From positions 472-64,471 of the forward strand of contig CAYXKT010000002.1 of the NCBI GenBank assembly GCA_964465735.1: a stretch of 64,000 nt of DNA, given 5' to 3'. The notes beneath the pieces were generated by a model. It was given only the letters and a program-made list of their open reading frames with translations, ran no database searches and was not told the DNA's origin. Positions 1-54,154 of this stretch are shown one piece after another. Each line of letters opens with the position of its first letter. The stretch's first letter is position 1. A program made the position numbers and the translations under genes. This DNA is from an uncultured bacterium (GTDB lineage Bacteria > Auribacterota > Erginobacteria > Erginobacterales > Erginobacteraceae).

Positions 1-66
1 AATAAACCGATTGCTTCGTCATCCCGCACCGCAGTGGCCTGGTTTTCCGGGTTGCGGTTCAGGCAC
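1..66 (+). repeat. Intergenic nested-hairpin repeat element, copy A (3' half, truncated by the window edge)
   Basis: GATTGCTTCGTC..CC.C...GCAGTGGCCTGGTTTTCCGGGTTGCGGTTCAGGCAC matches the 3' part of the elements at 2455-2565 and 4895-5004. Confidence 0.5.
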
Positions 67-129
67 TTTTTATCCCTGACTTGGCTTGCCCCTGTGTCCT
101 TCTTCGCCTCTGCGGTTCAATTTTCAGGA

Positions 130-2361
130 CTAATTCTCAGTGTTCTCTGTGGTCTTGTCGTTTTCCATAATATCTTTTTCTGTAACCGGAAGCGAGAGAC
201 GGAGGTTGGTAAGCCGGCGGGCCCGGGAACTGGGGACTCCTCCCCGGGAGTAGAACATTGTCTCCCCAAAACCTCCTTCCGGCCAGGGGGGAGCGCCAAT
301 AAAGACCCAGGCGCCCAGCGGCCAGCGACTGCCGACAAAGATCCTTCCTCCGGGCGCGGTAAATTCCCAGCGGGACCACTGATCGGGAGCATCCGCCCGA
401 AGCAGGGGTGACTCTCCAACCAGGCGGTCCGGAAGACCATCATCTTCAGTATCGGCATAAACCACGAACCGGAACGCCCCTTCCTCACCACCTCGGGCGT
501 GGGCCAGTTCAACCACCACACTGGCCCCCTTTTCCGGAGGCGGGATAACTTCCCAGACTCCGGAGTCGAAGTAGGTGGCGTGCTCCTCGCCCACGGCCCA
601 GAGCCCGGAATGGGAGGGAGCGAGAATCTTCCCCTCATCCATCCCTCGACCGGTCTCCGAATCGAGAACCTCGACAATCAAGGACTCCAGGGTCTGCCGT
701 TGGAAACGCTGATCCCAGCAGACCGGGTCATTGGCTCGGCGAGGAAGACGCCGACCGGCCCAATCAACAATGTCGTCGGCCAGCAACGGGCGAAGTTCGA
801 CGCGTTCCCGATTAATCTCCCTCAGGGGATAGCGGGAAGTAAGGTAGCGCAGCTCGGTGCTGAGGTTGGTATGCCAGCCAACCAGAAGGACATAATCCCC
901 GGGCCGGACATTGCCCCGGGAGTTCCGGGTATAACCTCGGATCGGGGTCTTCGCCCACCAGCCGACCTTGCGCAGTTCGCTGGAGTAAACTGTCCGCCCC
1001 GAGAGGTTATCCCGGATATATTCGGCCGAACGACGGATATCAGCGAAACTATCCCGCGACCAATAAAGAGCAAAACCGGTAAAGACCGTAGAGGCAAGCA
1101 GAGAGATAGCGATAACAATCCAGCCGGCCAAACGGAGAAACCGTTTCCGAAAAGAGACCAGAAAGTCGGCCCCGTAACCGGCCAGGGGGAGAGTGGCCGC
1201 GGCCAGCATATAGAGGTAGCGCGGGGTCCACCACTTGTTGACTACCAGGGTGTAGAAAACGGCGGCAAACAAATAGAGAAAGCAGACTGTCCAACCGAAC
1301 CGGAGGGGATGACGGCGGGAACGGAAGAGGGAGAGGATCAGTCCCAGTCCGGCCAGAACCGCCACCGGATAGACGAGGACATAGGGATAGGCCTTGAGAT
1401 AGTAACTAAGCCAGATCATCCAGCGGCCGGAGATCGAACGCATCGAGGTCCGCATACCTTCCTGGTACCAGGTACTCATTGCCAGGTGATGCTGCCAGAC
1501 ATAGAGAAATATATAGGGTCCGGCGGAGATCAGCAGCCCGAACAGGGCGAGCGGACGGCGGTACCACCATCCGGCCCTCCGGCCTGATCCGGGGGCAAGA
1601 TAGGAGATCACAAGCAGAACCAACCCCCAGATCGCGCCCAAAAAGAGCAGGCGGCTGATCAGCACCGGTCCGGGGAGAGTGACCGGAAAGAAACCGAGGA
1701 GGAAATCAAACGCGCAGACAGTGAGATTCTCCACCCCGGGGAGAAAGTGGAAGCCAAGGGCAAGGAGACCCCAACCGGACAATAAAATACTCAAAACCGG
1801 AAGGAGAGTCCGCTCCCGACGGGCAGTAAGGAGAAAATAGAGAAAGACGGCCACCACCGCCACCGGGACCAGGACCAGACCGGTCGGGTAAGTGAGAAGC
1901 GCCACCCCACCGGAGAAGACCCCGACCGCCAGCCACCAGGGAGAACGGATTTCAAAGGCACGGAAGATCCCATAGAAAAAGAGGAGAACAAAGAAAGAGT
2001 ACATCCCGTGGGGGAAGATCCGCAGCGACCAGCGGAAGATCAGGGGAGAAACTGTATAAAAGAGAATGGTTAGAAACGCCGCCCGCCGGTTATAGACCGC
2101 CCGAGCCAGTCCGGAGAGGGGAAAGACGGCCAGAGAGGCAAAGATAATCGAGACCAGACGGCCAGCCAGTTCAAGATCGCCGCCGAGGTGGTTGAGCGAT
2201 TTCAGGGCAAAAGGGTACGCGGGGAGAATGATTGTCCCCCGGATCCGTTCCAGCGCGGTCATATAGTCCACACTGTCGGTATAGGCCGCCGGATGCCAGT
2301 TGAGGAAGAGCAACCGGGCGACCAGATTAACCCCAAAAATCAGCAGTACCCACTTTCTCAT
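130..2361 (-). CDS. GT-C fold integral-membrane glycosyltransferase (ArnT/PMT-like, GT39/GT83-type) with a C-terminal periplasmic domain of about 140 aa
   Basis: 743 aa. The N-terminal two-thirds has more than 10 predicted TM helices with an ArnT/PMT-like layout. The C-terminal soluble domain is homologous to the C-termini of 2696..4774 and 5166..5879. ATG at 2361 in an intergenic context. Confidence 0.6.
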   Translation of the reverse strand: MRKWVLLIFGVNLVARLLFLNWHPAAYTDSVDYMTALERIRGTIILPAYPFALKSLNHLGGDLELAGRLVSIIFASLAVFPLSGLARAVYNRRAAFLTILFYTVSPLIFRWSLRIFPHGMYSFFVLLFFYGIFRAFEIRSPWWLAVGVFSGGVALLTYPTGLVLVPVAVVAVFLYFLLTARRERTLLPVLSILLSGWGLLALGFHFLPGVENLTVCAFDFLLGFFPVTLPGPVLISRLLFLGAIWGLVLLVISYLAPGSGRRAGWWYRRPLALFGLLISAGPYIFLYVWQHHLAMSTWYQEGMRTSMRSISGRWMIWLSYYLKAYPYVLVYPVAVLAGLGLILSLFRSRRHPLRFGWTVCFLYLFAAVFYTLVVNKWWTPRYLYMLAAATLPLAGYGADFLVSFRKRFLRLAGWIVIAISLLASTVFTGFALYWSRDSFADIRRSAEYIRDNLSGRTVYSSELRKVGWWAKTPIRGYTRNSRGNVRPGDYVLLVGWHTNLSTELRYLTSRYPLREINRERVELRPLLADDIVDWAGRRLPRRANDPVCWDQRFQRQTLESLIVEVLDSETGRGMDEGKILAPSHSGLWAVGEEHATYFDSGVWEVIPPPEKGASVVVELAHARGGEEGAFRFVVYADTEDDGLPDRLVGESPLLRADAPDQWSRWEFTAPGGRIFVGSRWPLGAWVFIGAPPWPEGGFGETMFYSRGGVPSSRARRLTNLRLSLPVTEKDIMENDKTTENTEN

Positions 2362-2454
2362 AACCGGTAATTCGGACTCCGGTCCGGAATCCTATCAAAG
2401 CATTTCGTTGGTTTTATTAACTAATGTCTGGACGTAAACCCGATATCACGGAGA

Positions 2455-2565
2455 GTCTGTCGTCGCAAGAAACGAAGTCACGGGGCAATCTCATCACAAA
2501 ATAAACAGATTGTTTCGTCGTCCCTCCTCGTAATGACCTGGTTTTTGAGATTTCCGTTCAGAACC
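2455..2565 (+). repeat. Intergenic nested-hairpin repeat element, copy B (full length)
   Basis: tctgtcGTCGCAAGaaACGAAGtca...TCTCATCACaaaATAAACAGATTGTTTCGTCGTCCCTCCTCGTAATGACCTGGTTTTT...CGTTCAGAACC. Inverted pairs CGCAAG/CTCGTAATGAC-type and ACGAAG/CTTCGT around a conserved loop of about 23 nt. Confidence 0.6.
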
Positions 2566-2695
2566 TAACTAAACTTACTCTTTGAAGCTGGTTAAAACCT
2601 TTTCCCACTTCTTCTCACCGTCACAATATCAGTTCGTCACCACCGGTTTCATCCTTTCATAAAACTTTTGACAGTACCCCCGCTAAGTTTGCCGG

Positions 2696-4774
2696 CTATC
2701 CCTCCTCCGGTTTTTCCCCGGGGGGAAGGATCTCGATAACCAGATTGGTGGAACGAGGGCCGGTGGAGAGAGTCGGAGGTCCGGAGGTGGAATAATACAT
2801 CGTCGGCGACAGATCCCGGTGGCCCCAGCCGGTCCGGTCAAAGAAGACCCGGGCGCCTTCATTCCAGGTATTGCCCACGAACAGCCTACCTTCCGGAGCG
2901 GGCAGAGTCCAGTAACTCCAGTCACCGGCCGAGCGGGCGGTGAGAAAAGATGACCTCCCCAGTTCCAGATCGGGGCGGCCGTCGTTATTCTTATCTCCAT
3001 AGGCCACGATAAAGAATCCACCTTCGTTGCCGGAAGCGGCGTGCTGGACCTTAACGGTGACTATATCTCCGGTTGAATATGGCTTGACCACCTCCCAGAC
3101 CTGGAGATTATGGCCGGGTGTAGTCCTCAGCTGGATATGCGGGGCCGGTACCCGCTCACCGCTGACCCGAAAGGCCCCCGCCCCGCTCAACTCCTTCAGC
3201 GTCGATTGGAGCTGGAGTTGAGAGATCAAGTTGAATATTCCCAGTGCCAGAAGACCAATCAGGGTTATCCAGACCGCCCTCATCATCCCCGGCGAGGATC
3301 CGGCCCCCGGTCCTCCAGGCAGATCGTCCCCCCGTTTCCTGCTGAAATTCATCATCACGACACCTCCGGTCAGCCAGATTAAGTACAGCGGCAGGAGACT
3401 GAGCTGTCCCCGCAAACCCGCCATCTGTCCCAGGTTGAAAGCGTTAAAAGAACTGGAGACGACGGAATTGCTCTGGAAGGTCGTCTCCGGGTTGATTGAA
3501 AGATAGCCCCCGAAAAAGGAGTGAAAGTAAAGATCCCGGAAAGGATGCCGGGCATACTCCTCGAAACGGACGGCGGTGGCGGTCAGAACTAAAAAGATCG
3601 AGACCGCCGCCAGAAGGGCCGAGATCCGCGGAAAGCGGACCACGAAAAAGAAGGCCAACAGCACCATATACGGCAGCATCTCCATCGCGTGCCGCGGACC
3701 AAATGCTTTTCCCCCATAGTAATAAGGATAGAGGGTATTGATAAAGAAATACCCCGAAATCAGGACTATCAGAATCGGCAAAAGGGACCGCGACCCTTTC
3801 TCTCGGGCCAGATAAAAACCGCCGGGGAAGAGCAGGATGAGAAAGGGAGAGAGATGAAAAAATCCGCGGAAAGGACCAAAGGAGGTCTGGTAGAGGGCCT
3901 CCATCAACTTCCGAGTCTGGAAGCCGAGGAGGGGTCCGTCCTTGTAGGCGCTATGGGCAGCGGCCCGCTTGTCGAAGTAGGCGATATACCAGGGGTTATG
4001 GAAAACCAGGTAGTTATATCCGATCAAGATGGCGGCCGGCAAAATCAGGCCGGCCAGAAACCAGCCGAAACGGAAAGTTCGGCTCCCGTTCCGGAAAAAC
4101 CCTCGAACCAGGCAATAGACCGAGAGCAGGGTGACGATAGCCGCCACGGGATACTCGGTCACCACCGCCCAGCCCCCGGCCAGTCCGGAGAGAAAGATAA
4201 AGAGCGATCCCCGGGGAGCGTCCGGCTCCAGAACCAGGTATTTCAGGAGGAGATAAAACGAGATCACGGTCAGAACCGAACTGACCATATGGCCGTAGAT
4301 CACGGTGGAATAGGCAAAAGCGGAGGTACCGAGAAAAAGGGCCAGAGTAGAGATCAACCTCGGGGCGATGGCTGAATGGAAGAGGCCGAGCAATCGGAAG
4401 AAGACCACCCCGCCTAAAGCGCAGGGCAGGCCGACGATCAGCACCCCCACCAGCCAGCAGGAGAAGAGATGGTAGAAATCCTCCGAGAAGAGACCGGTCA
4501 GGGTACCCTTCAGCCGGGAGATCAGATAGTAGGGGCCGACCCCGACCAGACTCATCCCCGGCGCCTTGTTGGGATAGTTCTTTCCCTCGACATTGACGAT
4601 ATCGTGGGTGGGAACCCGGACACCCCCGAAATGGAGCTGCCCCTGCTCCACCACTGCCCGCATCTGGCCCAGCCGAGCGTTCTGATTCGCCCCCCCGCCC
4701 TGATAGAAATAGGCGAAGCTGAAGAACAAGACGAAAAAGAGAGTTATCTCCAATTTATAATTTCGCAAAATCAA
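2696..4774 (-). CDS. GT-C fold integral-membrane glycosyltransferase (ArnT/PMT-like) with the shared C-terminal domain
   Basis: Multi-TM N-terminal region followed by the conserved C-terminal domain (VxVxHAAxG..GGFxIxAY.D...DG.PD...S.FLT...W). I trimmed the ORF-track start (4972) to the TTG at 4772-4774 (on the minus strand, GAGGA sits 5 nt upstream), because the longer N-terminus would be encoded by the intergenic repeat element at 4895-5004. Confidence 0.5.
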   Translation of the reverse strand: MILRNYKLEITLFFVLFFSFAYFYQGGGANQNARLGQMRAVVEQGQLHFGGVRVPTHDIVNVEGKNYPNKAPGMSLVGVGPYYLISRLKGTLTGLFSEDFYHLFSCWLVGVLIVGLPCALGGVVFFRLLGLFHSAIAPRLISTLALFLGTSAFAYSTVIYGHMVSSVLTVISFYLLLKYLVLEPDAPRGSLFIFLSGLAGGWAVVTEYPVAAIVTLLSVYCLVRGFFRNGSRTFRFGWFLAGLILPAAILIGYNYLVFHNPWYIAYFDKRAAAHSAYKDGPLLGFQTRKLMEALYQTSFGPFRGFFHLSPFLILLFPGGFYLAREKGSRSLLPILIVLISGYFFINTLYPYYYGGKAFGPRHAMEMLPYMVLLAFFFVVRFPRISALLAAVSIFLVLTATAVRFEEYARHPFRDLYFHSFFGGYLSINPETTFQSNSVVSSSFNAFNLGQMAGLRGQLSLLPLYLIWLTGGVVMMNFSRKRGDDLPGGPGAGSSPGMMRAVWITLIGLLALGIFNLISQLQLQSTLKELSGAGAFRVSGERVPAPHIQLRTTPGHNLQVWEVVKPYSTGDIVTVKVQHAASGNEGGFFIVAYGDKNNDGRPDLELGRSSFLTARSAGDWSYWTLPAPEGRLFVGNTWNEGARVFFDRTGWGHRDLSPTMYYSTSGPPTLSTGPRSTNLVIEILPPGEKPEEG

Positions 4775-4894
4775 GGTATCCTCAGCTTGACTTAAAGAAT
4801 GACTGAAAATACAATCAGTCAGTAGTGGCCTGAACCGCTCGTCAGCAAAAGAATATACTATAGCGACTGAACGAAAACCTAAAATCTCACAGGC

Positions 4895-5004
4895 TCTGTC
4901 ATTGCGAGGGACAAAGTGACGAAGCAGTCTCATCACCAGATAAACAGATTGCTTCGTCGTCCCTCCTCGCAATAACCTGGTTTTCGGGGTTTTCGTTCCG
5001 GCAC
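4895..5004 (+). repeat. Intergenic nested-hairpin repeat element, copy C (full length, best-conserved stems)
   Basis: TCTGTCATTGCGAGGGACaaagtGACGAAGCAgTCTCATCACcagATAAACAGATTGCTTCGTCGTCCCTCCTCGCAATAACCTGGTTTTCGGGGTTTTCGTTCCGGCAC. Stems CATTGCGAGGGAC/GTCCCTCCTCGCAAT and GACGAAGCA/TGCTTCGTC. Confidence 0.65.
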
Positions 5005-5165
5005 TACTATAGGTTCTACTCCAGCGGCTGTCTATCCTAACCCGCCGGATTTGAATAATATTTCATTGGTTCGGGAAAATACAGGTTGTGGTTTGTGGTG
5101 TAATCGATTAGAGATAAAACGGTTTTAAGAAGAACAAGTCGGCCAAGGGAGCACGCGAATTTAAT

Positions 5166-5879: not shown

Positions 5880-5880
5880 A

Positions 5881-6606
5881 TTGACGAATATATTCAGCAG
5901 GACTTTGATCGCTGTCGGCATCTTTGTCTCCGTGGGGGTTATCTGCCAAATCCTCTTCGAGCGCGCTGACCAGCCAGGCACGCCACGGCCCCGGATCGCC
6001 CCAGATCGACCACGGATAGAACCGCAGTCGGTGGAAAGCGGTGCCGCCCTGGAGAAGACCGCGAACTACCTGCGAAAAACCGCAACGCAGATAGTGTCGG
6101 GCTGGACCGAGACCGTGGACTTCTCCCACTCCGGCCACTATGATTCCTGAGACGGCAAAGTCCTATCCTGGTGGGAGTACAACGACCAGGACAAACAAAA
6201 GGTAATCTGGAAGTCGGCGCCCTGCCCGGAGAAGCGAACCACCACCCTGGTATTCAGCGGGGTCCTGGGGACTGCTGGAGGAGAAGCGAAACTTTGCGTC
6301 AACGGTCGCCCGGCTCTCTCTTTAAATACCGGGGTCGGACCGGCAACTGAAGAATGGGGAAGAGGAGACTACCACCTGAAGTTTTTCTCCATAGTCGTCA
6401 AACCAAACCAGGAACGGCTGGGGATCTTCGCTCTGAGCATACCGAAAGAAGATGTCACCTCCGGAGAGCCTATCACTCTGGAGGTAAGAGCGGAGGGGCT
6501 TTATAAGTCCGGTAACGGCAACAGATTTTTTCTGCTCAGTTCGATCCCCGAAATTTTAAAGAAACTGCCTCCAAAGAAGCAGGCCCTCGTCTCGTCCACC
6601 GTTCGA
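5881..6606 (+). CDS. Signal-anchored protein whose reading frame is interrupted by an in-frame TGA at 6148-6150 (readthrough, recoding, pseudogene or sequencing error)
   Basis: A TTG-initiated ORF 5881..6150 (89 aa, one TM) is followed in the same frame by 152 further sense codons ending at the TAA at 6604-6606. That stretch contains no ATG, GTG or TTG, so the downstream part has no start codon of its own. Confidence 0.35.
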
Positions 6607-13312: not shown

Positions 13313-13636
13313 TCAGCCCAGAACTGACTGATCCCGGGGAAAACCCCGTCTCTCCTCCCGGACCATAACCTTGTTCGCCTCTCCCCTGCCGATGGCCAGG
13401 CGGGTATCCTTCACTTCGATAACAATCGGACCGCTGCCGGAGTTCCTGATCACCCGTAACGGCTCGCCCGGAAGCAACCCGAGCGCGGTCAGCCGTTTCT
13501 TGAAATGCCATCCGCCCTCGAGAGCGGCCAGCGTGACAAGATCGTCCTCACGGGCAAAGGTGACCGGGACGGTATTCCCGCGCGCGCGGATAACGCGGCT
13601 ATTACGCCGGTGAAAAGCAGAATTTCGATAGATCAT
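13313..13636 (-). CDS. feoA: Second FeoA-domain protein
   Basis: 107 aa. FeoA-like core (LAALEGG...KKRLTALGLLPGEPLRVIRNSGSGPIVIEVKDTRLAIGRGEA) directly upstream of feoA/feoB. Confidence 0.7.
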   Translation of the reverse strand: MIYRNSAFHRRNSRVIRARGNTVPVTFAREDDLVTLAALEGGWHFKKRLTALGLLPGEPLRVIRNSGSGPIVIEVKDTRLAIGRGEANKVMVREERRGFPRDQSVLG

Positions 13637-13697: not shown

Positions 13698-13765
13698 AAC
13701 AGATTAAATTGCTTCGTCGGCCAGAAAGCTTTCGGGCCTCCTCGCAATGATATGTATCATTGCGA
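13698..13765 (+). repeat. Repeat element copy D (partial, diverged) carrying the 11-bp-arm palindrome TCGCAATGATA-tg-TATCATTGCGA
   Basis: GAACAGATTAAATTGCTTCGTCGG....CCTCCTCGCAATGATATGTATCATTGCGA. About 105-130 nt upstream of the second feoA start (13636). Confidence 0.5.
13742..13765. promoter_or_regulatory. Fur-box-like palindrome (AATGATAtgTATCATT) upstream of the second feoA
   Basis: Perfect 11-bp inverted arms TCGCAATGATA/TATCATTGCGA separated by TG. The core resembles the Fur box half-sites AATGATA/TATCATT. Lies within repeat element copy D. Confidence 0.4.
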
Positions 13766-13940
13766 CCGCGATCACACCACGGGGGGAAACAATCTCTATA
13801 ATCTCTATCGACTTGCCCGACAATATTGTTTTTCGCCGATAATCCCGGTTGATGCATTGCGGTATTTAATTCCGTCGGCCCGGAATAAGGTCGAGGGGAT
13901 AATACTGCGATCGATATTCATTCTCAATCGATTTCCGAGT

Positions 13941-18647: not shown

Positions 18648-18810
18648 ACCTAAGTTGAGCGATTATTGCGGATGAAATGTGCTAAGATTTTGCTGGCCGA
18701 CGGGTTGCGAAAACCGCAGCCATATCCAGGAGATATGGCGAGGATTTTCAATATCCGTTCGGACGCAAAAGATTGGTGCAGTTCGCCGCATAGAATCGCT
18801 CAATTTAGGT
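18648..18810. mobile_element. MITE-like element of about 163 bp with 15-17 bp terminal inverted repeats (copy 1 of 2)
   Basis: acCTAAGTTGAGCGATT...AATCGCTCAATTTAGGt. AT-rich relative to its flanks. Near-identical copy at 52258-52420 (2 mismatches). Intergenic. Confidence 0.6.
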
Positions 18811-18883
18811 ATAATACTATCTTAGTCTGGGTAAAGCAAAAATAAATCGTTGAGAAAGATAACCCGAGGAAGACGACTACCGG

Positions 18884-21195: not shown

Positions 21196-21416
21196 GGATT
21201 CAAGACCCCCGATCGGCTTATCTCGTCGGATCCAAATGAACACCCGGAATGCTTTGAACTGATTCACCTGCCGGATAAACTGGCAGGAGCCTGGAGAAAA
21301 TAGGGGGGCCGAAATAGCGCCCCCGGCGGGCTTCTCCGGCCGGAGCAAAAATTCTCAGACTACCAGCAGGTAAAACCAAATAAGCTATTATCGGAAAAAC
21401 GGATAAATTAAATCAA

Positions 21417-23474
21417 ATGGCGAAGAAACGGAAAATACGGCCGGAGGCGACGACCCCGGCAGCGATATCTTTTAAGTACCGGCCGACGGCAAAGAAAATT
21501 ATCACCGGCCTCTTTCTGCTGGCAGTGGTTCTCTCTTTCTTTCTCCGATTCTACGACCTGGAACTTAAGCCACTCCACCACGACGAGGGGGTCAACTCCT
21601 GGTTCTTGCTCAACCTGAAAGCTGACTTCCCCGGCGGCTGGACCTACGACCCCTCAAACTATCACGGGCCCTTCCTCTTCTTCACCCATATCATTCCCCT
21701 GGCCATTTACGAAAGCGTCTTTTCGCTACGCTGTATGGTGGCCCTCTTCGGCTCCCTGACCATCTGGCTCCTCTGGCCGCTGCGGCGAAAAATCGGCCGG
21801 GTCGGGGTAACGGCGGCCGCCTTTCTCCTCGCCATCTCTCCCTCCCATCTCTTCTTCTCCCGGACCAACATTCACGAAATTTACCTGGTCTTTTTCACCC
21901 TGGGGACAGTGGTCGGGATTGTCCGACTCTGGGAGACTAAGAAACCAATTTATCTGATCCTGGCCGTCGCCTGCTGGGCCTGGGTGATCACGGTCAAGGA
22001 GACCTACATCATCACCGCCGGGTCCTGGTTCTGGGCCGCAGTCGGGACCTACATCTGGTTCTCCATCACCCGCCGGAATGACGAAATTCCACCCAAATAC
22101 GCGGCCCGAGAAATGGGGGGGTGGCTGAAGACTCACTATGCGGCGATCTGGTTAGCGGCGGGAGTCTTCGTCCTGATTATCATCATCTATTATTCCTCCC
22201 TCTTCACCAGCCTGAAAGGAACCACCAGCGATCTGATCGAAAGCCTGATGATCTGGCAGAAGACCGGGACCAAGGGTGCCGGACACGAGAAACCTTTCTT
22301 TTACTGGTGGTGGCTGCTGCGGGACTTTGAGCTACCGATCTTCATCATCGGGGTCCTCGGACTCGCTCTGGCGACAGTCCGGAGAAACGCCTTTGCCGTC
22401 TTCTGTGTCATCTGGGCGGTAGTGATGTTTTTAATCCATTCCTCAATCGCCTACAAGACCCCCTGGCTGGCGCTTAACTTTATGCTTCCCCTGGTTCTCC
22501 TGGCCGGTTTCTTCTGCGAGCAGCTTTATCGTTCTCTGAGAAAGACCCCGGTACTGGCCGGGGCGGCCGGAGTCATCTTCGCCGGTGGACTTCTGGCCTG
22601 GGGGACCGGGATCAGCCGGACAGTCAATTTCATCGAATACGACGATGATCGCCATATGATCGTCTATTCCCAGACCCGACGCGACCTCAACGACCTGGTC
22701 GCGGCGATCGAGGAGTACGCCCACGAGCAGGGCCAGGGCTACACCACCGAGATCAAGATCGTCTCCGACGAGTACTGGCCGCTCCAGTGGTATTTAAGGG
22801 AATATCCCCGGGTAGGTTTCTGGGGAAAGGTGCTCCCCGATTCCGATGGACCGATCGTGATCGGCCGTTCCACCACCCGGAACGAACTGGAAAAAGTTCT
22901 CCAGGACACCTACTCCTCCGAACTCTACAGTGTCCGGCCGGGGCTGGATCTTTATCTCTACACCCGCCTCCACCGGGGGAGAGTCCCGAAAGAAGAACTC
23001 CCGGCCCCGGAGCCGATGGGGATAACAAAGGCTGATCTCCAACCGGGACTGGTCGGCAGTTACTTCAACAAGGTTAATCCGGTCGGCCGGGCCGACGATA
23101 CCCGGATTGAGGATCAGTTTGAATTTCACTATAACAGCCCGGCGGAGACCAGGGCCGGGCTCGGGTTTTCGCCGCCCTTAAGCATTCTCTGGGAAGGAAT
23201 AATCGAGATCCCCCGGGCAGGGACCTATGTTTTTGCCACCGAGTCCGACGACGGCTCCTGGATCTTTATCGGCGAGCGGCAGGTAGTCGATAACGGCGGG
23301 GCCCACGCAATGCAGTATCGCTCCGGAGAGATCACCCTGGAGGAAGGGTTTTATCCACTGAAGATCAAGTACTTCGAAGTCGGCGGCGGGGCGGTCCTCA
23401 AGGTCTTCTGGTCCCCCCCGGGGGAGAGCGAGGAGCCGATCCCTCCCGGGCGCCTCTTCCACCAGAAACGGTAA
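21417..23474 (+). CDS. Polytopic membrane protein (GT-C-like, LKPLHHDEGVNSWF motif) fused to a C-terminal PA14 carbohydrate-binding domain
   Basis: 685 aa. About 11 TM helices in the N-terminal 400 aa. The C-terminal 145 aa (GLVGSYFNK...DDGSWIFIGERQVVDNGGAH...GFYPLKIKYFEVGGGAVLKVFWSPPG) matches the PA14 domain pattern. The PA14 part spans about 23040-23474. Confidence 0.6.
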   Translation: MAKKRKIRPEATTPAAISFKYRPTAKKIITGLFLLAVVLSFFLRFYDLELKPLHHDEGVNSWFLLNLKADFPGGWTYDPSNYHGPFLFFTHIIPLAIYESVFSLRCMVALFGSLTIWLLWPLRRKIGRVGVTAAAFLLAISPSHLFFSRTNIHEIYLVFFTLGTVVGIVRLWETKKPIYLILAVACWAWVITVKETYIITAGSWFWAAVGTYIWFSITRRNDEIPPKYAAREMGGWLKTHYAAIWLAAGVFVLIIIIYYSSLFTSLKGTTSDLIESLMIWQKTGTKGAGHEKPFFYWWWLLRDFELPIFIIGVLGLALATVRRNAFAVFCVIWAVVMFLIHSSIAYKTPWLALNFMLPLVLLAGFFCEQLYRSLRKTPVLAGAAGVIFAGGLLAWGTGISRTVNFIEYDDDRHMIVYSQTRRDLNDLVAAIEEYAHEQGQGYTTEIKIVSDEYWPLQWYLREYPRVGFWGKVLPDSDGPIVIGRSTTRNELEKVLQDTYSSELYSVRPGLDLYLYTRLHRGRVPKEELPAPEPMGITKADLQPGLVGSYFNKVNPVGRADDTRIEDQFEFHYNSPAETRAGLGFSPPLSILWEGIIEIPRAGTYVFATESDDGSWIFIGERQVVDNGGAHAMQYRSGEITLEEGFYPLKIKYFEVGGGAVLKVFWSPPGESEEPIPPGRLFHQKR

Positions 23475-23616
23475 CTCAAAGCGAACCTTTCGGGGCCCGC
23501 CAGGAAAGTTGATCTCACTTGACACCGGGACTGAAGATCGGGTATCTTTTAATATCTATGGTTGTTTGCCTGAAACCAATTCCGGAGCCCCCACATTCGG
23601 GGAAAAGGAGGAACAG

Positions 23617-24213
23617 ATGCGGATAAAATCATCGAACAGGGCCAAGCGGTTGGCAACAGTTATCCTGACCGCGATCTTTTTCTCCATCGGACTGGGGGGG
23701 TGCCAGGAAACGGGACCGGAGGCTACAACCATTGATGTCGAGAAAATTATCGACTTTACCGGGGTCATCTCGATTACCCTGCCTTCCGGGGAGACCACCC
23801 GGCTCGCTGTCGGCCAGACCCTGATCCCTCTTCCCGCGGATACTCTGGTCGAGATAGTCTCCGGAGAGTCCACCGGGATGCTGGCGGGAAAGATCATTCT
23901 CCTCCGGGAAGATCAGGTTGCCCGGATCATCCGGCCGGGGGTGACCGCCCACCACGTGATCCGTTTCACCGGGGAGTTGAAGATCGTCCTCCCCGACGGC
24001 ACCGTGATCTTCGTTAAGGAGGGGGATCCTCTGCCCATCCTCCCTGCCGGAACCCGGATCGAGGTGATCTCGGGCGAACTGGTAGTACTCTGGGGCGACG
24101 AGCGGATTACCCTGGTCGCCGGCAATGTCGCCTGGATCGAGTTGCGGCCCAAAGACCGACTGTTGGAACTGGAGAGAGGCGACATCAGCCCGGCCAGCCC
24201 GTTTAGACCTTAA
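23617..24213 (+). CDS. Lipoprotein with an internal duplication (two repeats of about 50 aa)
   Basis: Start ATG 23617 with AAGGAGG 6 nt upstream (the ORF-track start at 23509 is less likely). Lipobox LGGC in MRIKSSNRAKRLATVILTAIFFSIGLGGC. Repeats I.LP.G....G..L..LPA.T..E..SGE occur twice. Confidence 0.5.
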   Translation: MRIKSSNRAKRLATVILTAIFFSIGLGGCQETGPEATTIDVEKIIDFTGVISITLPSGETTRLAVGQTLIPLPADTLVEIVSGESTGMLAGKIILLREDQVARIIRPGVTAHHVIRFTGELKIVLPDGTVIFVKEGDPLPILPAGTRIEVISGELVVLWGDERITLVAGNVAWIELRPKDRLLELERGDISPASPFRP

Positions 24214-24236
24214 AACCTTGAGGATGAGGGCGGCCT

Positions 24237-25430
24237 TTGAAACAGTTCAGATCCTTGAACGCTATTCTCCGAGGTGGGTTGGCTCTGGGACTCTTGCTTC
24301 TGCCGGCCCTTTCGGCTCTCGCCCTGGAAATCGGTTCGCCAGGACACGGCATCAGTCAGGGAAGCCTGGTCATCCATCCCCGGATTCAACTCCAGGGAGA
24401 ATATGACGACAATATCTTCCTCACCGACCGGGACCGAAAACAGGACCTGATCGGTATCCTGGTCCCGGGGGTAACCTTGGAATTCCCCTGGGAGAATAAT
24501 CTCCTGCTCCTCGACTACCAGGCCTTGCTCTATTATTATCGGGACTATCCTGATCAGAACCATCAGGACCACCGCCTCCAAGGTCGGATCAGCCTGCTGG
24601 CCGCCCCCTTCTCCCTGAAGGCGGAAGACACCTTCCTCAAAACTTCCTCTCGGGAAAATACCGACTACACCGACCGAGTAGAACGAATTGAGAATATTGC
24701 CCGAGCGGAGCTGATATATTTGGCAAATAAATTCCAGGTCCAGGGGGGATACGAAAATTATCTCTACCGCTACGATGAGCGACCCTACCGTCCCTACGAC
24801 CATACCGAACACCGGGGAATCCTGACCGGGTTTTATCAGGCAGCGCCCAAGACCAAGGCCCTTCTGGAGTACACCCACTCCCGGATCATCTACCGCGATT
24901 ACAAGGATCGCAACGGATACTACAATGAAGTCCGGGCCGGATTTATTGGGGAGATCACCTCCAAGCTGACCGGGACGGCCAAGATCGGTTACCAGGAGCG
25001 GCGCTACCGGGAAGATTCAATCTGGGACGACTATCGGGGGATCGTCGGCTACGCCCTGCTGGAACAGGTTTTTTCGCCTGAGCACGACCTCCGCCTGGCC
25101 TGGGAACGTTCGGTCCAGGAATCAACTTTTTCCGGCAACAGCTATTACCTGCTCAACCGGGCCTGGATCTATTACAGCCGCCAACTCACCCATAAGATCC
25201 GCGGCTTTGCCCGCCTCCAGTACAGCAACTACCGCTACCCCGAAACTTCCTTGGACCGCGGCGGGAAAAGACGGGATAATACCTGGGAACCGGAGATCGG
25301 GGTCAGGTACCAGGTTCAGCCCTGGCTGGCGGCCGAATTCAAGTACCGCTACCGAAACCGCGACTCCAACTGGCCGGATAAGGATTATTTGAATAACCGG
25401 TTTTACCTGGAAATATCGGCGGCGTATTGA
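24237..25430 (+). CDS. Outer-membrane beta-barrel protein, possibly associated with polysaccharide export
   Basis: 397 aa. Signal peptide ...LLLLPALSALALE. Tyr/Arg-rich alternating strand pattern. C-terminus ...LEISAAY ends in an aromatic residue. Located immediately upstream of wza/wzc-like genes. Confidence 0.5.
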   Translation: MKQFRSLNAILRGGLALGLLLLPALSALALEIGSPGHGISQGSLVIHPRIQLQGEYDDNIFLTDRDRKQDLIGILVPGVTLEFPWENNLLLLDYQALLYYYRDYPDQNHQDHRLQGRISLLAAPFSLKAEDTFLKTSSRENTDYTDRVERIENIARAELIYLANKFQVQGGYENYLYRYDERPYRPYDHTEHRGILTGFYQAAPKTKALLEYTHSRIIYRDYKDRNGYYNEVRAGFIGEITSKLTGTAKIGYQERRYREDSIWDDYRGIVGYALLEQVFSPEHDLRLAWERSVQESTFSGNSYYLLNRAWIYYSRQLTHKIRGFARLQYSNYRYPETSLDRGGKRRDNTWEPEIGVRYQVQPWLAAEFKYRYRNRDSNWPDKDYLNNRFYLEISAAY

Positions 25431-25486
25431 CCCTGAATTTTGGCCCTGAAGCGATTTCAGTCCGGACGATAAAAAAGGAGCACAGA

Positions 25487-25540: not shown

Positions 25541-25620
25541 CCGGTCAGCCTCCTGATGGGTGAATCCGGAAAATATTTATTTTGCCCGGACAATTTGTTT
25601 TCATTATATGACATCAGAAA

Positions 25621-26427: not shown

Positions 26428-26435
26428 AGGAGATT

Positions 26436-50615: not shown

Positions 50616-52037
50616 TTAGTAGCCCGTGGCTCCGGTGACGATCACCGCGGCCGACTCATTGGGCGCGAGGGTATCGGTACCGACATTCCGGATAATCCAC
50701 TGGTCGGGCGAACGGAAGACCGTCAGGTCGACAACTCCGTCCCCGTCAAAATCTCCCACCACCGGGACGTCGCCGCTATTGCCCCAGACTGCGGTATCAT
50801 AGCCGCCGACCCCGTCGCGCCGGATCCACCAGAACCTGTTGTCGGCCGGCCGGTAGGCGCCAAGGCAAGAATACCCCGAGACATAGGCGCCCGGGACCGG
50901 GATATCGCCGCTCAGACCCCAGGCCCGGCTGCCGGGCACGCCGTTGACGAACCAGCGCCAGGTGCCGTAATCATCCGTGTTGATGACGGCGATGTCGGTC
51001 GTCCCGTCGCCGGTGTAGTCGCCCGGAACCGGGATCACACCGTCATAACCGTAGAGGATTGAGGTAATGTTCTTGACGTACCAGTAACCGTTGGAGGGCC
51101 GCCAGACAGCCAGGTCGGTCGTTCCGTCGCCGTCGTAATCGCCCGGCACCGGAACGTCGCCGGCAATACCCCAGACTTCGCCATCGATGATGGCTCCGCC
51201 GCCCACGCTCTGGGCAAACCATTCTCCGGTACCCCGGTCGAAGTAACCCAGGTCGGCTCTGCCGTCACCGTCATAGTCGCCGGGGGCCGGGACATCGTAC
51301 TCACCACCGCCGAAGGTCTCGGTGCCGATCCCTTCCAGCTGCCAATCGCCGCTGGATTGGTTGTAAAAGGCGGCATCGGTCATCCCGTCTCCACTGTAGT
51401 CGTCACTGGCTTTGACCAGATAAATCGGGGAAGGCGCGGGCGCCGGGGGTGCCGGCGGGGCCACGGTGGTAACATTGGTGATCGCCACATCGTCGATCAC
51501 GACATTGTCGGCATCGACCTTCAAGTACTCGATCTCCACCTGCTGGGAGGAACTGGCGTTGAGGGCCATAGTAATGATTCCGCCGCCGAGGCTGTGAGGC
51601 CCGGGCAGCCAGGAAAGAACGGACCAGTCGGCGCCGTTATATTCCCGGACCTGGATCGCGCTGCTCGGGTTGGCGCCAATGGCCTGGAGGTAGAAGCTCA
51701 GGTCGCTGTCGCCCGGGACGCCGTCCAGAGTGTACTCCTCGGTAATGATCCGGGAGCGGGCGGTCCGGCCCAGCTGGATACTCGGTACACCAGACAACGG
51801 ACCACCATATAACATATCAGCGTCCGAGTTCCGGTTGCAATTGATGAATTCCCAGCCGTCGGGGCGGACCCCGATCTGGAAGTTGTCGAAGCCCTCATTG
51901 ATCTGGGCCGTGGCCGACAGGCTGAGACAGACTGACACCACAATCATTACCGCCAATACCATTATTCCACGCTTCATACTAACCCCCTTCAGGTAGGGTT
52001 GTGTCCCGTTGCGGGGACTTGGTAATATGAAATACAC
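50616..52037 (-). CDS. Secreted protein: N-terminal unassigned domain of about 135 aa plus FG-GAP/VCBS-like repeats, C-terminal ...VTGATGY
   Basis: 473 aa with a signal peptide. N-domain INEGFDNFQIGVRPDGWEFINCNRNSD..., homologous to four copies in the giant protein. Repeats [60 protein letters not shown]. Confidence 0.7.
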   Translation of the reverse strand: MYFILPSPRNGTQPYLKGVSMKRGIMVLAVMIVVSVCLSLSATAQINEGFDNFQIGVRPDGWEFINCNRNSDADMLYGGPLSGVPSIQLGRTARSRIITEEYTLDGVPGDSDLSFYLQAIGANPSSAIQVREYNGADWSVLSWLPGPHSLGGGIITMALNASSSQQVEIEYLKVDADNVVIDDVAITNVTTVAPPAPPAPAPSPIYLVKASDDYSGDGMTDAAFYNQSSGDWQLEGIGTETFGGGEYDVPAPGDYDGDGRADLGYFDRGTGEWFAQSVGGGAIIDGEVWGIAGDVPVPGDYDGDGTTDLAVWRPSNGYWYVKNITSILYGYDGVIPVPGDYTGDGTTDIAVINTDDYGTWRWFVNGVPGSRAWGLSGDIPVPGAYVSGYSCLGAYRPADNRFWWIRRDGVGGYDTAVWGNSGDVPVVGDFDGDGVVDLTVFRSPDQWIIRNVGTDTLAPNESAAVIVTGATGY

Positions 52038-52163: not shown

Positions 52164-52225
52164 TTGTCATTGCGAAAAATCTCAACCTGAAGATTGCTTC
52201 GTCGCCTTCGGCTCCTCGCAGTGAC
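52164..52225 (+). repeat. Repeat element copy E (diverged)
   Basis: TGTCATTGCGAAAAATCTCAACCTGAAGATTGCTTCGTCGCCTTCGGCTCCTCGCAGTGAC. Same architecture: GTCATTGCGA ... GATTGCTTCGTCG ... CCTCGCAGTGAC. Confidence 0.5.
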
Positions 52226-52257: not shown

Positions 52258-52420
52258 ACCTAAGTTGAGCGATTATTGCGGATGAAATGTGCTAAGATTT
52301 TGCTGGCCGACGGGTTGCGGAAACCGCAGCCATATCCAGGAGATATGGCGAGGATTTTCAATATCCGTTCGGAGGCAAAAGATTGGTGCAGTTCGCCGCA
52401 TAGAATCGCTCAATTTAGGT
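52258..52420. mobile_element. MITE-like 163-bp element with terminal inverted repeats (copy 2 of 2)
   Basis: Same sequence as 18648-18810, differing at 2 positions. Lies between the two tandem paralogous genes. Confidence 0.6.
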
Positions 52421-52526
52421 TTTATAGAGTTGAAGTGTTACTGACATTTTAACCATCGCACATAAAATCCAGCGATGTCGAGAGTCAAACCTGATTTATT
52501 TCCTGGCTTCGGTTTGCGGCTCCGTT

Positions 52527-53900
52527 TTAGTATCCCGGAGCCCCGGTGACGATCACGTCATTGAAGAGATCGGCGGATAAAGTAACTTCGAAGCCGGAGG
52601 TCGGGCCATCCGGTCCGGTCCGCCCCAGCCACCGGTCCGGCGACCGGAATACGGCCGGGTAAACCACCCCGTCCCCGTTAAAGTCGCCCACCACCGGGAC
52701 GTCACCGGTCAGACCCCACAGTGCGGTACCATAGCCGCCGACGCCGTCGCGCCGGATCCACCAAAACCTGTTGTCGGCGGGCCGGTAGGCGCCCAAGTAG
52801 GTATGCCCGTCAGCAAAGTAAACACCCGGGACCGGGATATCGCCGCTCAGACCCCAGGCCCGGCTGCCGGGCACGCCGTTGACGAACCAGCGCCAGGTGC
52901 CGTAATCATCCGTGTTGATGACGGCGATGTCGGTCGTCCCGTCGCCGGTGTAGTCGCCCGGAACCGGGATCACACCGTCATAACCGTAGAGGATTGAGGT
53001 AATGTTCTTGACGTACCAGTAACCGTTGGAGGGCCGCCAGACAGCCAGGTCGGTCGTTCCGTCGCCGTCGTAATCGCCCGGCACCGGAACGTCGCCGGCA
53101 ATACCCCAGACTTCGCCATCGATGATGGAGTGGCTGCCCGGTTTCTGGGCGAACCACTGCCCGGTACCCCGGTCGAAGTAACCCAGGTCGGTCCAGCCGT
53201 TGCCGTTATAGTCGCCGGGCGCCGGGACGTCGTAGTCGCCGCCGCCAAAGGTTATTTTGCCGAACCCGTCAATCCGCCAGTCTCCTTTGGCGGTGTTGTA
53301 AACCGCGATATCGGAAGTCCCGTCTCCAGTGTAGTCGTCACTGGCTTTTACAAGATAAAACGGAGAAGGGGCCGGCGCCGGGGGCGCCGGCGGGGGCGCG
53401 GTGTCCACATTGGTGATCACCACATCGTCGATCACAACGTGACCGTCTCCACCAGCCTTCAAATATTCAATCTCCACCTGCTGGGAGGAGCTGGCGTTGA
53501 GGACCATAGTAATGGTTTCGCCGCTGTTGTTGTGAGGACCTGGCAGCCAGGTCAGCACAGACCAGGCACCACCGACAAACTCGCGGACCTGGATGGCGCT
53601 GATCGGGTTGGGGGTGATCGCCTGGAGCCAAAAACTCAACTGACTGGCACCGGTCAGGGTGAACTTCTCGGTCAAGATCCGGGAGCGAGTGGTCCGGCCC
53701 AGCTGGATACTCGGTACACCAGACAACGGACCACCATATAACATATCAGCGTCCGAGTTCCGGTTACAGTTGAAAAAACACCAGCGCGCCGGCCTGACCC
53801 CGATCTGGAAAGAATCGAATCCTTCATCGATCTGGGCCAGGGCCGGCAACCCCGCACAGAAAACAAGCGCCAGGGCCAATACCAATAAATCACACTTCAT
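52527..53900 (-). CDS. Secreted paralog of 50616..52037 (N-domain plus FG-GAP-like repeats, C-terminal ...VTGAPGY)
   Basis: 457 aa with a signal peptide. Same architecture as the neighbour. Contains a 304-bp block that is 100% identical at the DNA level to the neighbouring paralog. Confidence 0.7.
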   Translation of the reverse strand: MKCDLLVLALALVFCAGLPALAQIDEGFDSFQIGVRPARWCFFNCNRNSDADMLYGGPLSGVPSIQLGRTTRSRILTEKFTLTGASQLSFWLQAITPNPISAIQVREFVGGAWSVLTWLPGPHNNSGETITMVLNASSSQQVEIEYLKAGGDGHVVIDDVVITNVDTAPPPAPPAPAPSPFYLVKASDDYTGDGTSDIAVYNTAKGDWRIDGFGKITFGGGDYDVPAPGDYNGNGWTDLGYFDRGTGQWFAQKPGSHSIIDGEVWGIAGDVPVPGDYDGDGTTDLAVWRPSNGYWYVKNITSILYGYDGVIPVPGDYTGDGTTDIAVINTDDYGTWRWFVNGVPGSRAWGLSGDIPVPGVYFADGHTYLGAYRPADNRFWWIRRDGVGGYGTALWGLTGDVPVVGDFNGDGVVYPAVFRSPDRWLGRTGPDGPTSGFEVTLSADLFNDVIVTGAPGY

Positions 53901-54063
53901 CCTTACCCCCTTGGTGGATGCGACCCGTTGCGAGGACCTGTTAAAAACAACATTAACTCTGTGAAATCCAAATATTCCTGATGATAATCCATTTTCCCCC
54001 TTATCATCCCGACGGTCAAGAGAAAGATTGTTTTTGTTATTTAGTGTCTGAACGAAAACCCCT

Positions 54064-54154
54064 GAAACCAGATCATTACGAGGAGGGACGACGAAGCAAC
54101 CTGTTTACCCTGTGATGAGATGGCTTCTTCGCTCCGTTTTTCGCAATGACAGAC
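54064..54154 (-). repeat. Repeat element copy F (minus orientation)
   Basis: The reverse complement reads TCTGTCATTGCGAAAAACGGAGCGAAGAAGCCATCTCATCACAGGGTAAACAGGTTGCTTCGTCGTCCCTCCTCGTAATGATCTGGTTT. About 160 nt upstream of the 52527..53900 gene start. Confidence 0.6.

Follow-up and report, generated by a model that had tools for sequence, protein, structure and literature searches.

Six intergenic sites in a 64,000-nucleotide stretch of DNA from an uncultured bacterium (the window) carry related hairpin repeats, and the locus raises the question of whether these are selfish mobile DNA, regulatory structures shared by neighbouring operons, or remnants of gene duplication. A sequence-only reading of this DNA had described them as a single family with two nested inverted-repeat pairs around a conserved loop. 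We found that all six sites exist, that all are intergenic, and that the quoted core, in particular its arm, is common to them. They do not form a single class, but fall into four MITE copies and two REP-only units:

1-67, plus strand: right half of a MITE truncated by the start of the window (aligns with the other copies from the loop on)
2423-2566, plus strand: complete, decayed MITE of 144 nt (terminal repeats, flanks and alignment)
4862-5005, plus strand: best-preserved MITE, 144 nt (ends and flanks)
13703-13766, plus strand: bare REP unit without terminal repeats (sequence and arm matches)
52166-52225, plus strand: bare REP doublet without terminal repeats (sequence and arm matches)
54043-54185, minus strand: MITE of 143 nt (ends and flanks)

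The repeated hairpin elements are very probably small non-coding selfish mobile DNA (MITEs), with insertion sequence (IS)-type ends and a palindrome cargo inside. The MITE reading rests on observed features: the elements carry terminal repeats and target duplications, one site is precisely empty in a relative and other orthologous sites lack the element, and insertion sequences exist whose ends match, with an ISNCY-family transposase. The earlier suggestion of a REP/MITE-like selfish element was therefore borne out by these features together with the REP-like core, and both terms fit: the long copies are true MITEs, whereas REP-like palindromes make up their core as well as the two short copies. 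Such elements are of an ordinary kind, and these are a new member within that known kind.

The MITE is about 144 nt long (143-145 nt in full copies) and has no coding capacity, the sole ORF on its copies being a 5' extension, judged spurious, of an adjacent ORF. Twelve full copies were compared, drawn from the window, the Ca. Erginobacter occultus MAG, a second MAG (CAKZYZ01) and a PVC-group MAG, and copies from all four sources had three nested inverted repeats and sharp common ends. The two nested pairs already described were present, but a third, outermost pair had been overlooked; these 18-nt terminal inverted repeats, AGTGTCTGAACGAAAACC and GGTTTTCGTTCAGACACT, bound the element with 0-4 mismatches per copy. 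The long copies accordingly extend beyond the limits first given, to 2423-2566, 4862-5005 and 54043-54185, with the right half of another at 1-67. Inside the terminal repeats, a REP-like palindrome (YGTC-ATTGC...GCAAT) occurs twice, head to head. The two short sites have only the core palindrome arm in common with the long copies: they lack the outer repeat, they carry different arm tips, and the conserved loop that had been ascribed to every copy is missing from both.

The 27-nt right arm TGCTTCGTCGTCCCTCCTCGCAATGAC, with at most 3 mismatches, matched 2511-2537 and 4950-4976 on the plus strand and 54072-54098 on the minus strand, where shuffled sequence predicts 0.00 matches; TTGCTTCGTC with at most 1 mismatch gave 10 matches in the window against 3.2 expected. 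In a repeat search of the window the long copies appeared as 118-133-nt repeats of 74-79% identity, and a scan of the window with the arm end CTCGCAATGAC revealed no additional ones. The cut copy at 1-67 retains the loop end, a diverged right REP arm and the right terminal repeat (50-67, 4 mismatches), and sits 62 nt past the stop of a minus-strand GT-C gene (130-2361). Copy 2423-2566 is placed between two minus-strand GT-C (PMT_2) genes, and copy 54043-54185 occupies the divergent gap between an FG-GAP paralog (52527-53900, minus strand) and an FkbM methyltransferase gene (54436-55341, plus strand), both neighbours being assigned by Pfam. Since copy 2423-2566 and the cut copy are both decayed, recent activity in this genome is uncertain. 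At least 11 loci of the E. occultus MAG hold the element, and in 8 of the 11 the contig breaks off at the element, as assemblies commonly do at repeats.

Evidence of insertion was found at the ends of the element. Identical direct repeats of 4-5 nt bordered 10-11 of the 12 full copies (AACT, ACTAT, AAAT, AACT, ATAT, AAGT, ATAT, AAAT, AAAT, ATTT and AGTT). In the window these were AACT for copy 2423-2566 (2419-2422 and 2567-2570), ACTAT for copy 4862-5005 (4857-4861 and 5006-5010) and, on the plus strand, ATTT for copy 54043-54185 (54039-54042 and 54186-54189). For 77 elements with these terminal repeats, the flanking 4-mers were identical in 45 and differed by one mismatch in 19, whereas 1000 rounds of shuffled pairing gave 8.7 identical pairs on average and never more than 18. 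The logo of the flanks of the 77 elements read T-A-N-N-T, element, A-N-N-T-A, indicating an AT-rich target TA-NN-TA. Because the flanking T...A is constant, the length of the duplication cannot be fixed and may be read as 2, 4 or 6 bp (5 or 7 bp in one copy); the ISDol1 group makes 6-7-bp duplications, which would fit the TA-NN-TA reading. Insertion of the MITE is into such AT-rich TA-NN-TA sites, with duplication of a few bases of the target.

Comparison with relatives gave the same picture at the level of whole sites. Where the window reads CCTATAGT, the 144 nt of copy 4862-5005 and then ATAGTATATTC, the relative L235 has the precise empty site TCTATAGTATATTAT. The gap orthologous to that of copy 2423-2566 measures just 16-61 nt in L235, L238 and L241, and in the reverse case E. 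occultus contig L136 has a MITE copy that the window lacks at 21196-21416. Relatives with 75-83% identity in the flanking protein had no element at the orthologous intergenic sites. These findings bear on the idea that the copies are remnants of local segmental duplications of the GT-C and FG-GAP paralogs. The copies do adjoin paralogs (two or three GT-C genes and two FG-GAP genes), and duplicated upstream DNA is common to the FG-GAP paralogs. However, that common DNA stops at the MITE start, a position where the other paralog carries another kind of unit; related copies lie on many unlinked contigs of other genomes; and each copy, including those beside neighbouring paralogous genes, has its own direct repeat and unrelated flanks, which marks them as separate insertions. 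Local segmental duplication as the origin of the copies was contradicted by these data, and we consider it extremely improbable.

The elements had also been described as concentrated in promoter regions. For one copy, 4862-5005, the insertion point is the -10 hexamer of a promoter-like site that is conserved and lies upstream of a minus-strand gene ending at 2696:

5006-5034, minus strand: promoter-like site TAGACA-17-TATAGT (10/12 matches), outside the element

Both hexamers of this site are conserved in L235 and L238, and its -10 hexamer is the duplicated target of the copy, so that the site explains the position of the copy. Of 11 fully flanked copies, 4 were between divergent, 5 between tandem and 2 between convergent genes, with varying orientation, indicating no promoter-specific placement. 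The apparent concentration is better explained by target choice, in that TA-NN-TA is similar to -10 boxes and to other intergenic DNA rich in A and T, and copies consequently land near promoters or terminators. MITE copies could in this way end up within untranslated regions; copy 4862-5005 is probably transcribed into a 5' UTR, and any effects of the copies on neighbouring genes would be incidental.

A position of this sort is also what a cis-regulatory or small-RNA element common to the operons of the glycosylation/secretion island, such as a 5' UTR structure or a protein binding site, would occupy. Every copy is intergenic, several lie upstream of genes, and copy 4862-5005, just downstream of the promoter-like site, would enter the leader transcript. 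Its hairpin is very stable relative to shuffled sequence (z -6.3 as RNA; -6.3 and -5.7 as DNA). In phage contigs, single arms of the palindrome stand directly upstream of ribosome-binding sites, which likewise favours a regulatory reading. Against it, the hairpin of copy 2423-2566 was no more stable than shuffles (z -0.36). Copy 54043-54185 lay in between (z -2.2), and the bare units 13703-13766 and 52166-52225 gave z values of -3.2 and -2.75 as DNA. The claim that stem changes partly preserve pairing failed for the long copies: they decay on one arm without compensation, a double change was seen in 1 of 44 predicted pairs, and the covariation term was unfavourable (+0.97). No Rfam family matched the window at gathering score, the elements at E <=10 or the canonical doublets at E <=1. 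The Fur-box-like palindrome was at background, since the best match to the 19-bp consensus GATAATGATAATCATTATC reached 11/19 at 13743-13764, where two REP ends join, and 234 window positions scored at least 11. Close relatives retain the genes in question but have no element at the orthologous sites; the gene context of the elements varies, with 2 of 11 copies between convergent genes, and both orientations occur. Taken together, the absence of Rfam matches and covariation, the empty orthologous sites, the lack of promoter-specific placement and the background Fur score leave a shared regulatory or small-RNA role unsupported, and we regard it as very unlikely.

Returning to the MITE reading, a full-length partner was found in addition to the small non-coding size, terminal inverted repeats, target duplication and empty site. 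The sequence-only reading had raised the prospect that the element maps to a known IS or MITE family, and in effect it does, through ISNCY-type ends. Insertion sequences with matching ends are known from metagenome contigs: at four loci (L347, L351, L354 and L313), a single ORF is enclosed by MITE-type terminal repeats at a spacing of 1.88-1.93 kb; it encodes 486 aa in L347 and is split by a frameshift in L313. L347, the one of these insertion sequences scanned against NCBIfam, matched NF033593, "ISNCY family transposase" (E 3e-153, 510.6 bits, cutoff 325), with a weaker match to IS5 (4e-26) and a weak Pfam match to DDE_Tnp_1_6. Its transposase has more than 7,900 homologs at E <= 1e-40, and the 120 matches listed were mostly on contigs of about 2 kb. 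The flanking 4-mers of the full-length insertion sequences had one mismatch in 3 of 4. Terminal repeats of the MITE type also enclose many unrelated cargos of 73-356 nt. No transposase of this ISNCY family was found in the 64-kb window or the E. occultus loci examined. The DDE transposase of an ISNCY-family (IS5-related) insertion sequence with matching terminal repeats would move the copies in trans, which is the likely mode of their mobilisation, and we infer that an active ISNCY-type transposase persists in the lineage.

The interior of the MITE has a different source: it is not IS-derived but is a head-to-head heterodimer of the REP-like palindrome, so that the MITE is a shell of IS origin that carries a REP doublet. 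The REP unit consists of the tag YGTC, a stem of 5 contiguous pairs (ATTGC/GCAAT), an internal loop of about 5 x 6 nt rich in purines or pyrimidines, and a small variable tip hairpin with a 2-6-bp stem and a 3-nt loop. The palindrome was matched exactly in over 120 viral contigs and in over 113 stretches of genomes belonging to many phyla, and arms lay inside a MITE shell in 0 of 135 viral and 8 of 116 genome cases. As most doublets elsewhere and the two short copies lack terminal repeats, the transposase cannot explain the spread of the core palindrome. Unit 13703-13766, upstream of feoA (13313-13636, minus strand; FeoA Pfam match), is composed of TTGCTTCGTC, a GGCC..GGCC tip hairpin and CCTCGCAATGA, after which come TATGTA and, in inverted form, 9 nt of the arm end (TCATTGCGA); L235 carries a unit of near-identical type at a different place. 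Doublet 52166-52225 has a shortened left arm, GTCATTGCGA, and a right arm of the GCCTTCGGC-tip type (GATTGCTTCGTCGCCTTCGGCTCCTCGCAGTGAC), a tip variant also found in viral contigs.

In 135 viral arms the base after ...CAATGAC was A in 61 and G in 59, corresponding to TGTC or CGTC on the other strand; the window copies carry TGTC. TTGC was preceded by GGA in 61 and AGA in 52 of these arms, giving the tails TCC and TCT, and the tail bases pair with the partner arm in doublets. An inverted partner was present upstream of 61/135 viral and 88/116 genome arms. Single arms were not predicted to be stable under standard DNA parameters. Between two arms the tail covaried (65 of 82 Watson-Crick pairs against 37 expected, a value reached in 0 of 2000 shuffles), and compensatory changes from G-C to A-T were seen in the mini-hairpin that forms the arm tip.

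This covariation favours a REPIN-type account, in which a REP doublet is mobile as a single-stranded hairpin through a Y1/HUH tyrosine transposase (RAYT-like) and the outer inverted repeat is no more than one segment of a long palindrome, or else a favoured target. The core resembles a REP doublet in its unpaired YGTC tag and head-to-head pairing, and the bare units differ in position between relatives and have sharp ends without visible target duplication. The outer repeat, on the other hand, is identical to the termini of a DDE insertion sequence and is found around unrelated cargos, and variable direct repeats flank that of the 144-nt unit, whereas Y1 transposases (IS200/IS605) are not known to make a target duplication. 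No Y1 transposase was among 10 genes bracketed by REP arms, a small sample in which all were ordinary or phage structural genes, and the literature links no transposase to CGTC REPs. The CGTC-1 dimers of H. neapolitanus are described as all lying within a 41-bp outer palindrome (PMC3733652), a point in favour of the account. As an explanation of the repeats it is improbable; REPIN-type mobility is the leading idea for how the bare REP units would spread, and not for the MITE copies.

Among known systems, MITEs derived from DDE insertion sequences, of which the Correia elements of Neisseria are an example, are alike in size (here about 144 bp), lack of an ORF, ends identical to those of a full-length IS, short target-site duplication, AT-rich target and many intergenic copies; they can also fold as a long hairpin and lie inside transcripts. 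Unlike the usual cases, the partner here is of the ISNCY family (IS5-related) rather than the families usually cited, and the interior is a REP-type doublet also found independently rather than an internal deletion of the IS. The ISNCY family (NF033593) is matched by the elements of about 1.9 kb with MITE-type ends, which encode a single transposase, L347 scoring far above the cutoff, whereas the window holds a non-autonomous derivative only. As in REPINs (Bertels and Rainey 2011, PMC3116915; Nunvar 2010), two inverted REP units form one long hairpin and the doublet is the evolving unit, with singlets too (PMC3116915). The tag here is YGTC and not GTAG, the ends of the long copies are of DDE type and flanked by target duplications, and no RAYT gene lay beside REP arms in the 10-gene sample. 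Set by description against the four families of the CGTC-tagged REPs (Di Nocera, De Gregorio and Rocco 2013, PMC3733652), the palindrome most resembles these published repeats. They have a continuous 8-9-bp stem and a 4-5-nt loop, which the palindrome here does not show. Their tail is short and unpaired with the consensus CCA; here the tail is short too and reads TCC(A) after GCAA in the commonest arm class (61/135), so that it may correspond to theirs. They are described there from several phyla including the PVC group, mostly as head-to-head dimers with conserved spacers and often as heterodimers, with no known transposase, and in one species the dimers are embedded in an outer palindrome ending GAAAaACC / GGTaTTTC. 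By the same description, the palindrome shares with them the unpaired terminal tag (CGTC, or TGTC / CCTC; here CGTC or TGTC), a stem beginning with A-T pairs (ATT...AAT), a mostly head-to-head dimeric arrangement and, as judged from the 10 bracketed genes sampled here, the lack of a dedicated transposase.

The six repeat sites were read directly in the window sequence and exist as reported. The 27-nt right arm (at most 3 mismatches) occurred three times in the window versus 0.00 expected from shuffles, and the 10-mer TTGCTTCGTC (at most 1 mismatch) occurred ten times versus 3.2 expected; scanning the window for the arm end gave zero additional copies. A repeat-finding run on the window recovered the long copies as 118-133-nt repeats with 74-79% identity. 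When these were aligned with their flanks, both nested inverted-repeat pairs described in the sequence-only reading were present, but a third, outermost inverted repeat had been overlooked. The full element measures 143-145 nt and has the ends AGTGTCTGAACGAAAACC ... GGTTTTCGTTCAGACACT. Two of the sites lacked the outer repeat and carried other arm tips, so that the six sites, formerly treated as one family, have the inner palindrome arm in common but form two related classes.

Repeat features in the window and in one related locus
2423-2566, plus strand: MITE copy, from the alignment including the outer repeat
4862-5005, plus strand: MITE copy, from the alignment including the outer repeat
54043-54185, minus strand: MITE copy, from the alignment including the outer repeat
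1-67: right half of a MITE copy, cut by the window edge, from the alignment
13703-13766: bare REP unit, inner palindrome arm only, without outer repeat, different arm tip
52166-52225: bare REP unit, inner palindrome arm only, without outer repeat, different arm tip
18648-18811 and 52258-52421: second, unrelated MITE family, about 164 nt, two copies with 95% identity
L218 (a locus of MAG CAKZYZ01) 6206-6351: third MITE, about 146 nt, terminal repeats CAGACTGTGTCACAATTG

The window proved close to the MAG 'Candidatus Erginobacter occultus', of the phylum Ca. Auribacterota in the PVC group: positions 21383-27865 were 84% identical to one of its contigs, and the GT-C protein encoded at 130-2361 was 83% identical to its counterpart there. 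Scanning genomes with the right arm found the full 144-nt element in at least 11 E. occultus loci, as well as in another MAG, CAKZYZ01, and one PVC-group MAG, all counts from genome and metagenome scans being lower bounds. Among the E. occultus matches listed, the element lay at a contig end in 8 of 11 loci, as is typical where assemblies break at multi-copy repeats; the 144-nt element accounts for contig breaks in Auribacterota MAGs.

Identical direct repeats of 4-5 nt flanked 10 or 11 of the 12 full copies, and their sequence varied from copy to copy. In the 77 terminal-repeat-bounded elements from all loci collected, the flanking 4-mers were identical in 45 and differed by one mismatch in 19, whereas shuffled flank pairing gave a mean of 8.7 identical and a maximum of 18. 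The flanks of these elements read T-A-N-N-T before and A-N-N-T-A after the element, which indicated that the insertion target is TA-NN-TA; since the T...A is constant, lengths of 2, 4 and 6 bp are all possible readings of the target duplication. A precise empty site, TCTATAGTATATTAT, was found in L235, a relative with orthologous genes on a 432-kb JGI contig, and its window counterpart at copy 4862-5005 is CCTATAGT-[144 nt]-ATAGTATATTC. The gap that holds copy 2423-2566 measured only 16-61 nt in three relatives, and zero full copies were found in the 22-kb orthologous regions of L235 and two other relatives (L236 and L237). Upstream of window gene 21417-23474 there is no copy, but its E. occultus ortholog is preceded by one. 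Copies beside paralogous genes had their own duplications and unrelated flanks, and are therefore separate insertions.

The terminal repeat was present in at least 120 metagenome loci, and in most of those among the matches listed the repeats were 70-360 nt apart. In four loci (L347, L351, L354 and L313) they were 1.88-1.93 kb apart and enclosed a single ORF, split by a frameshift in L313. The 486-aa product of L347 matched NCBIfam NF033593, 'ISNCY family transposase' (E 3e-153, 510.6 bits, cutoff 325), with a weaker match to the IS5 profile and a weak Pfam match to DDE_Tnp_1_6. The transposases of terminal-repeat loci were just 47-57% identical to the L347 protein, with unchanged ends. This protein had more than 7,900 homologs, and most of the best 120 came from contigs about 2 kb long. 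The insertion-sequence ends contained no REP sequence, and identical ISNCY-type terminal repeats enclosed many unrelated short cargos; the window element therefore belongs, as one branch, to a large MITE superfamily dependent on an ISNCY-type insertion-sequence group. A tblastn search gave no transposase of the L347 type in the 64-kb window or the E. occultus loci collected. The literature on ISDol1 and ISNCY MITEs held nothing that helped subgroup assignment. The sequence-only reading had set against its own proposal the case that the element maps to a known IS/MITE family, and the terminal repeats match ISNCY-type insertion sequences. The selfish REP/MITE-like element that it had also offered was borne out by the terminal repeats, the direct repeats, the empty site and the matching insertion sequence, and we consider the MITE explanation of the long copies highly probable. 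The repeat family is real and of an ordinary kind, an IS-dependent MITE with REP-doublet cargo plus two bare REP units; the element is a new, unnamed member of its kind in a little-studied candidate phylum.

The competing proposal was a cis-regulatory or small-RNA element shared by several operons and concentrated in promoter regions. Of the 11 fully flanked copies, 4 were between divergent, 5 between tandem and 2 between convergent genes, roughly the distribution of any intergenic insertion. Copy 4862-5005 sits precisely on the -10 hexamer (TATAGT, 5006-5011) of a minus-strand promoter-like site, TAGACA-17-TATAGT. Both promoter-like hexamers were conserved in element-free relatives. The TA-NN-TA target mimics a -10 box, and insertion there is a simple reason for the promoter-associated look of such elements; it also predicts that the transcribed leader of the downstream GT-C gene may include copy 4862-5005. 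Decay is under way in the window copies, with 8-9 changes in the left arm of two copies versus 2-3 in the right arm. Pairing-preserving stem changes had been proposed, but a double change occurred in only 1 of 44 pairs, and the MITE copies, which are too alike and related by copying, showed no covariation. The hairpin of copy 2423-2566 was no more stable than shuffled sequence. Rfam, a check the sequence-only reading had suggested, returned zero family matches on the elements, both at the gathering score over the whole window and in permissive mode over window 1-5100 plus five canonical-doublet loci. With no Rfam match, decaying copies and orthologous regions of relatives devoid of the element, the shared regulatory or small-RNA role is not supported. 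A Fur box at 13743-13764 was rejected, as its 11/19 match was equalled by 234 window positions and is background; the palindrome is the junction of two REP ends. For annotation, this removes the false lead of a regulon-wide RNA or Fur-linked element.

The MITE interior reads GTCATTGCGAGG-AACGAAGT-GACGAAGCAATC, then the loop, then GATTGCTTCGTC-GTCC-CTCCTCGCAATGAC. More than 120 viral contigs contained exact matches to the generic arm TTGCTTCGTC-N(2-16)-CTCGCAATGAC, and the window's arm subtype was found in more than 113 genome stretches, with hosts including Bacteroidota, Anaerolineae, Nostoc, Brasilonema, Planctomycetota, Gammaproteobacteria, Peregrinibacteria and Hydrogenedentota. The base beyond the arm extends the tag to YGTC. 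Of the 135 viral arms among the matches listed, 61 had an inverted partner and 0 lay inside the terminal-repeat shell; of the 116 listed genome arms, 88 had a partner and 8 (Auribacterota and PVC copies only) lay inside the shell. At its tip the arm forms a small hairpin, either XY-NNN-Y'X' or a longer one. Of the 26 distinct 9-nt tips, 25 had a Watson-Crick outer pair, alternating between G-C and A-T. The third and fourth bases beside the arms covaried between doublet partners: position 3 was Watson-Crick in 65 of 82 genome doublets versus 37 expected, and 0 of 2000 shuffles reached 65, a control that ignores shared descent and makes the covariation supportive rather than proof. Single arms folded with DNA parameters were no more stable than shuffles. 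The tip GCGAAGC / ACGAAGT may be a specially stable GNA-triloop DNA mini-hairpin, a lead only; Hirao and Yoshizawa reportedly worked on such structures. Bare doublets ended sharply at their tags, with no visible target duplication.

In the putative phage contigs L009 (4460-12744), L002, L004, L015, L096 and L103, single arms lay directly 5' of ribosome-binding sites and start codons. L009 carried four same-orientation arms between consecutive genes, some beside SU10-adaptor-like structural genes. The phage-contig arms may, for example, act in RNA processing or in transcript stability, or may be a mobile insert. REP doublets also formed tandem arrays with a 123-nt period in the genome loci L174 (6815-7209, four units) and L151 (7741-7889) of Anaerolineae MAG JBDHWG01, a clustered arrangement unlike the dispersed doublets elsewhere.

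The second MITE family has terminal repeats ACCTAAGTTGAGCGATT / AATCGCTCAATTTAGGT and 3-bp flanking direct repeats (ATA and TTT), and 32 nt separate its copy at 52258-52421 from the bare REP unit found at 52166-52225. The third MITE interrupts a copy of the 144-nt element between GTCATT and GCG, with duplication of ATT. These genomes hold several MITE families that insert into one another, and at least two in the window can create spurious ORF extensions. The longest ORF call of the GT-C-like gene at 2696-4972 (minus strand) starts at a TTG inside the MITE; since its orthologs have 692-704 aa, the true start must be near 4800, and MITEs here do create spurious 5' extensions. Beside these repeats, a giant ORF of 2616 aa (56051-63901, minus strand) contains a long run of G+C-rich 18-nt (six-residue) repeats at about 58425-59290, and longer repeats, about 190-195 nt each, occupy 57200-58270 and 60480-61700; its product is probably a secreted repeat protein. 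The tandem FG-GAP paralogs at 50616-52037 and 52527-53900 (both minus strand), otherwise 77-84% identical, share a 300-nt stretch of 100% identity (50890-51189 and 52825-53124), which suggests recent gene conversion, and both have the same upstream promoter-like TTGACC-17-GAAAAT.

Four metagenome loci (L244, L304, L314 and L323) held a sister REP doublet, GTCATTTCGA..GAGAAATC / GATTTCTC..TCGAAATGAC, inside the same ISNCY-type terminal repeats. It differs from the window's ATTGC/GCAAT stem by a G-C to T-A swap, so that two REP types, ATTGC and ATTTC versions, share one shell. The window element shows a CGTC-like REP carried in a vehicle whose DDE transposase can be identified, and a REP-like palindrome with nearly every base conserved among phyla and phage contigs is linked to a mobilisable vehicle. 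This gives a testable movement route for at least some 'orphan' REPs. A much broader reading, which we regard as improbable, is that the pan-bacterial YGTC-ATTGC...GCAAT palindrome, lacking its own transposase, spreads as cargo in ISNCY/IS5-type shells within and between genomes, phages included. The window element would then be a REP caught in the act of riding inside an ISNCY/IS5-end shell. If true, this would explain the co-occurrence of ATTGC and ATTTC types inside identical terminal repeats, and would resolve how CGTC REPs move, which Di Nocera et al. 2013 left open (PMC3733652).

Full-text literature searches with element sequences and spurious-ORF peptides (RFARND, CEERSDEAI and others) returned unrelated primers only. 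The missing GTAG tag argues against REPIN/RAYT membership, and so does the lack of a Y1 or RAYT-like gene among ten genes bracketed by REP arms, a small sample in which all were ordinary. The motif was absent from the supplements of Di Nocera 2013, a paper that gives its consensus sequences only in figures (PMC3733652). As described there, CGTC-tagged REPs have a CGTC or TGTC tag, stems starting with A-T and a short tail; they form head-to-head dimers, often heterodimers, with conserved spacers, and occur without a dedicated transposase in several phyla including the PVC group (PMC3733652). In one species the dimers lie within an outer palindrome ending GAAAaACC / GGTaTTTC (PMC3733652). This is the closest description to the window core, which shares the tag, the stem beginning with A-T and the tendency to form dimers, but not the continuous stem of 8-9 bp closed by a 4-5-nt loop (PMC3733652). 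Compared by description, the core resembles a CGTC REP and works like one, but is placed in none of the four families published (PMC3733652).
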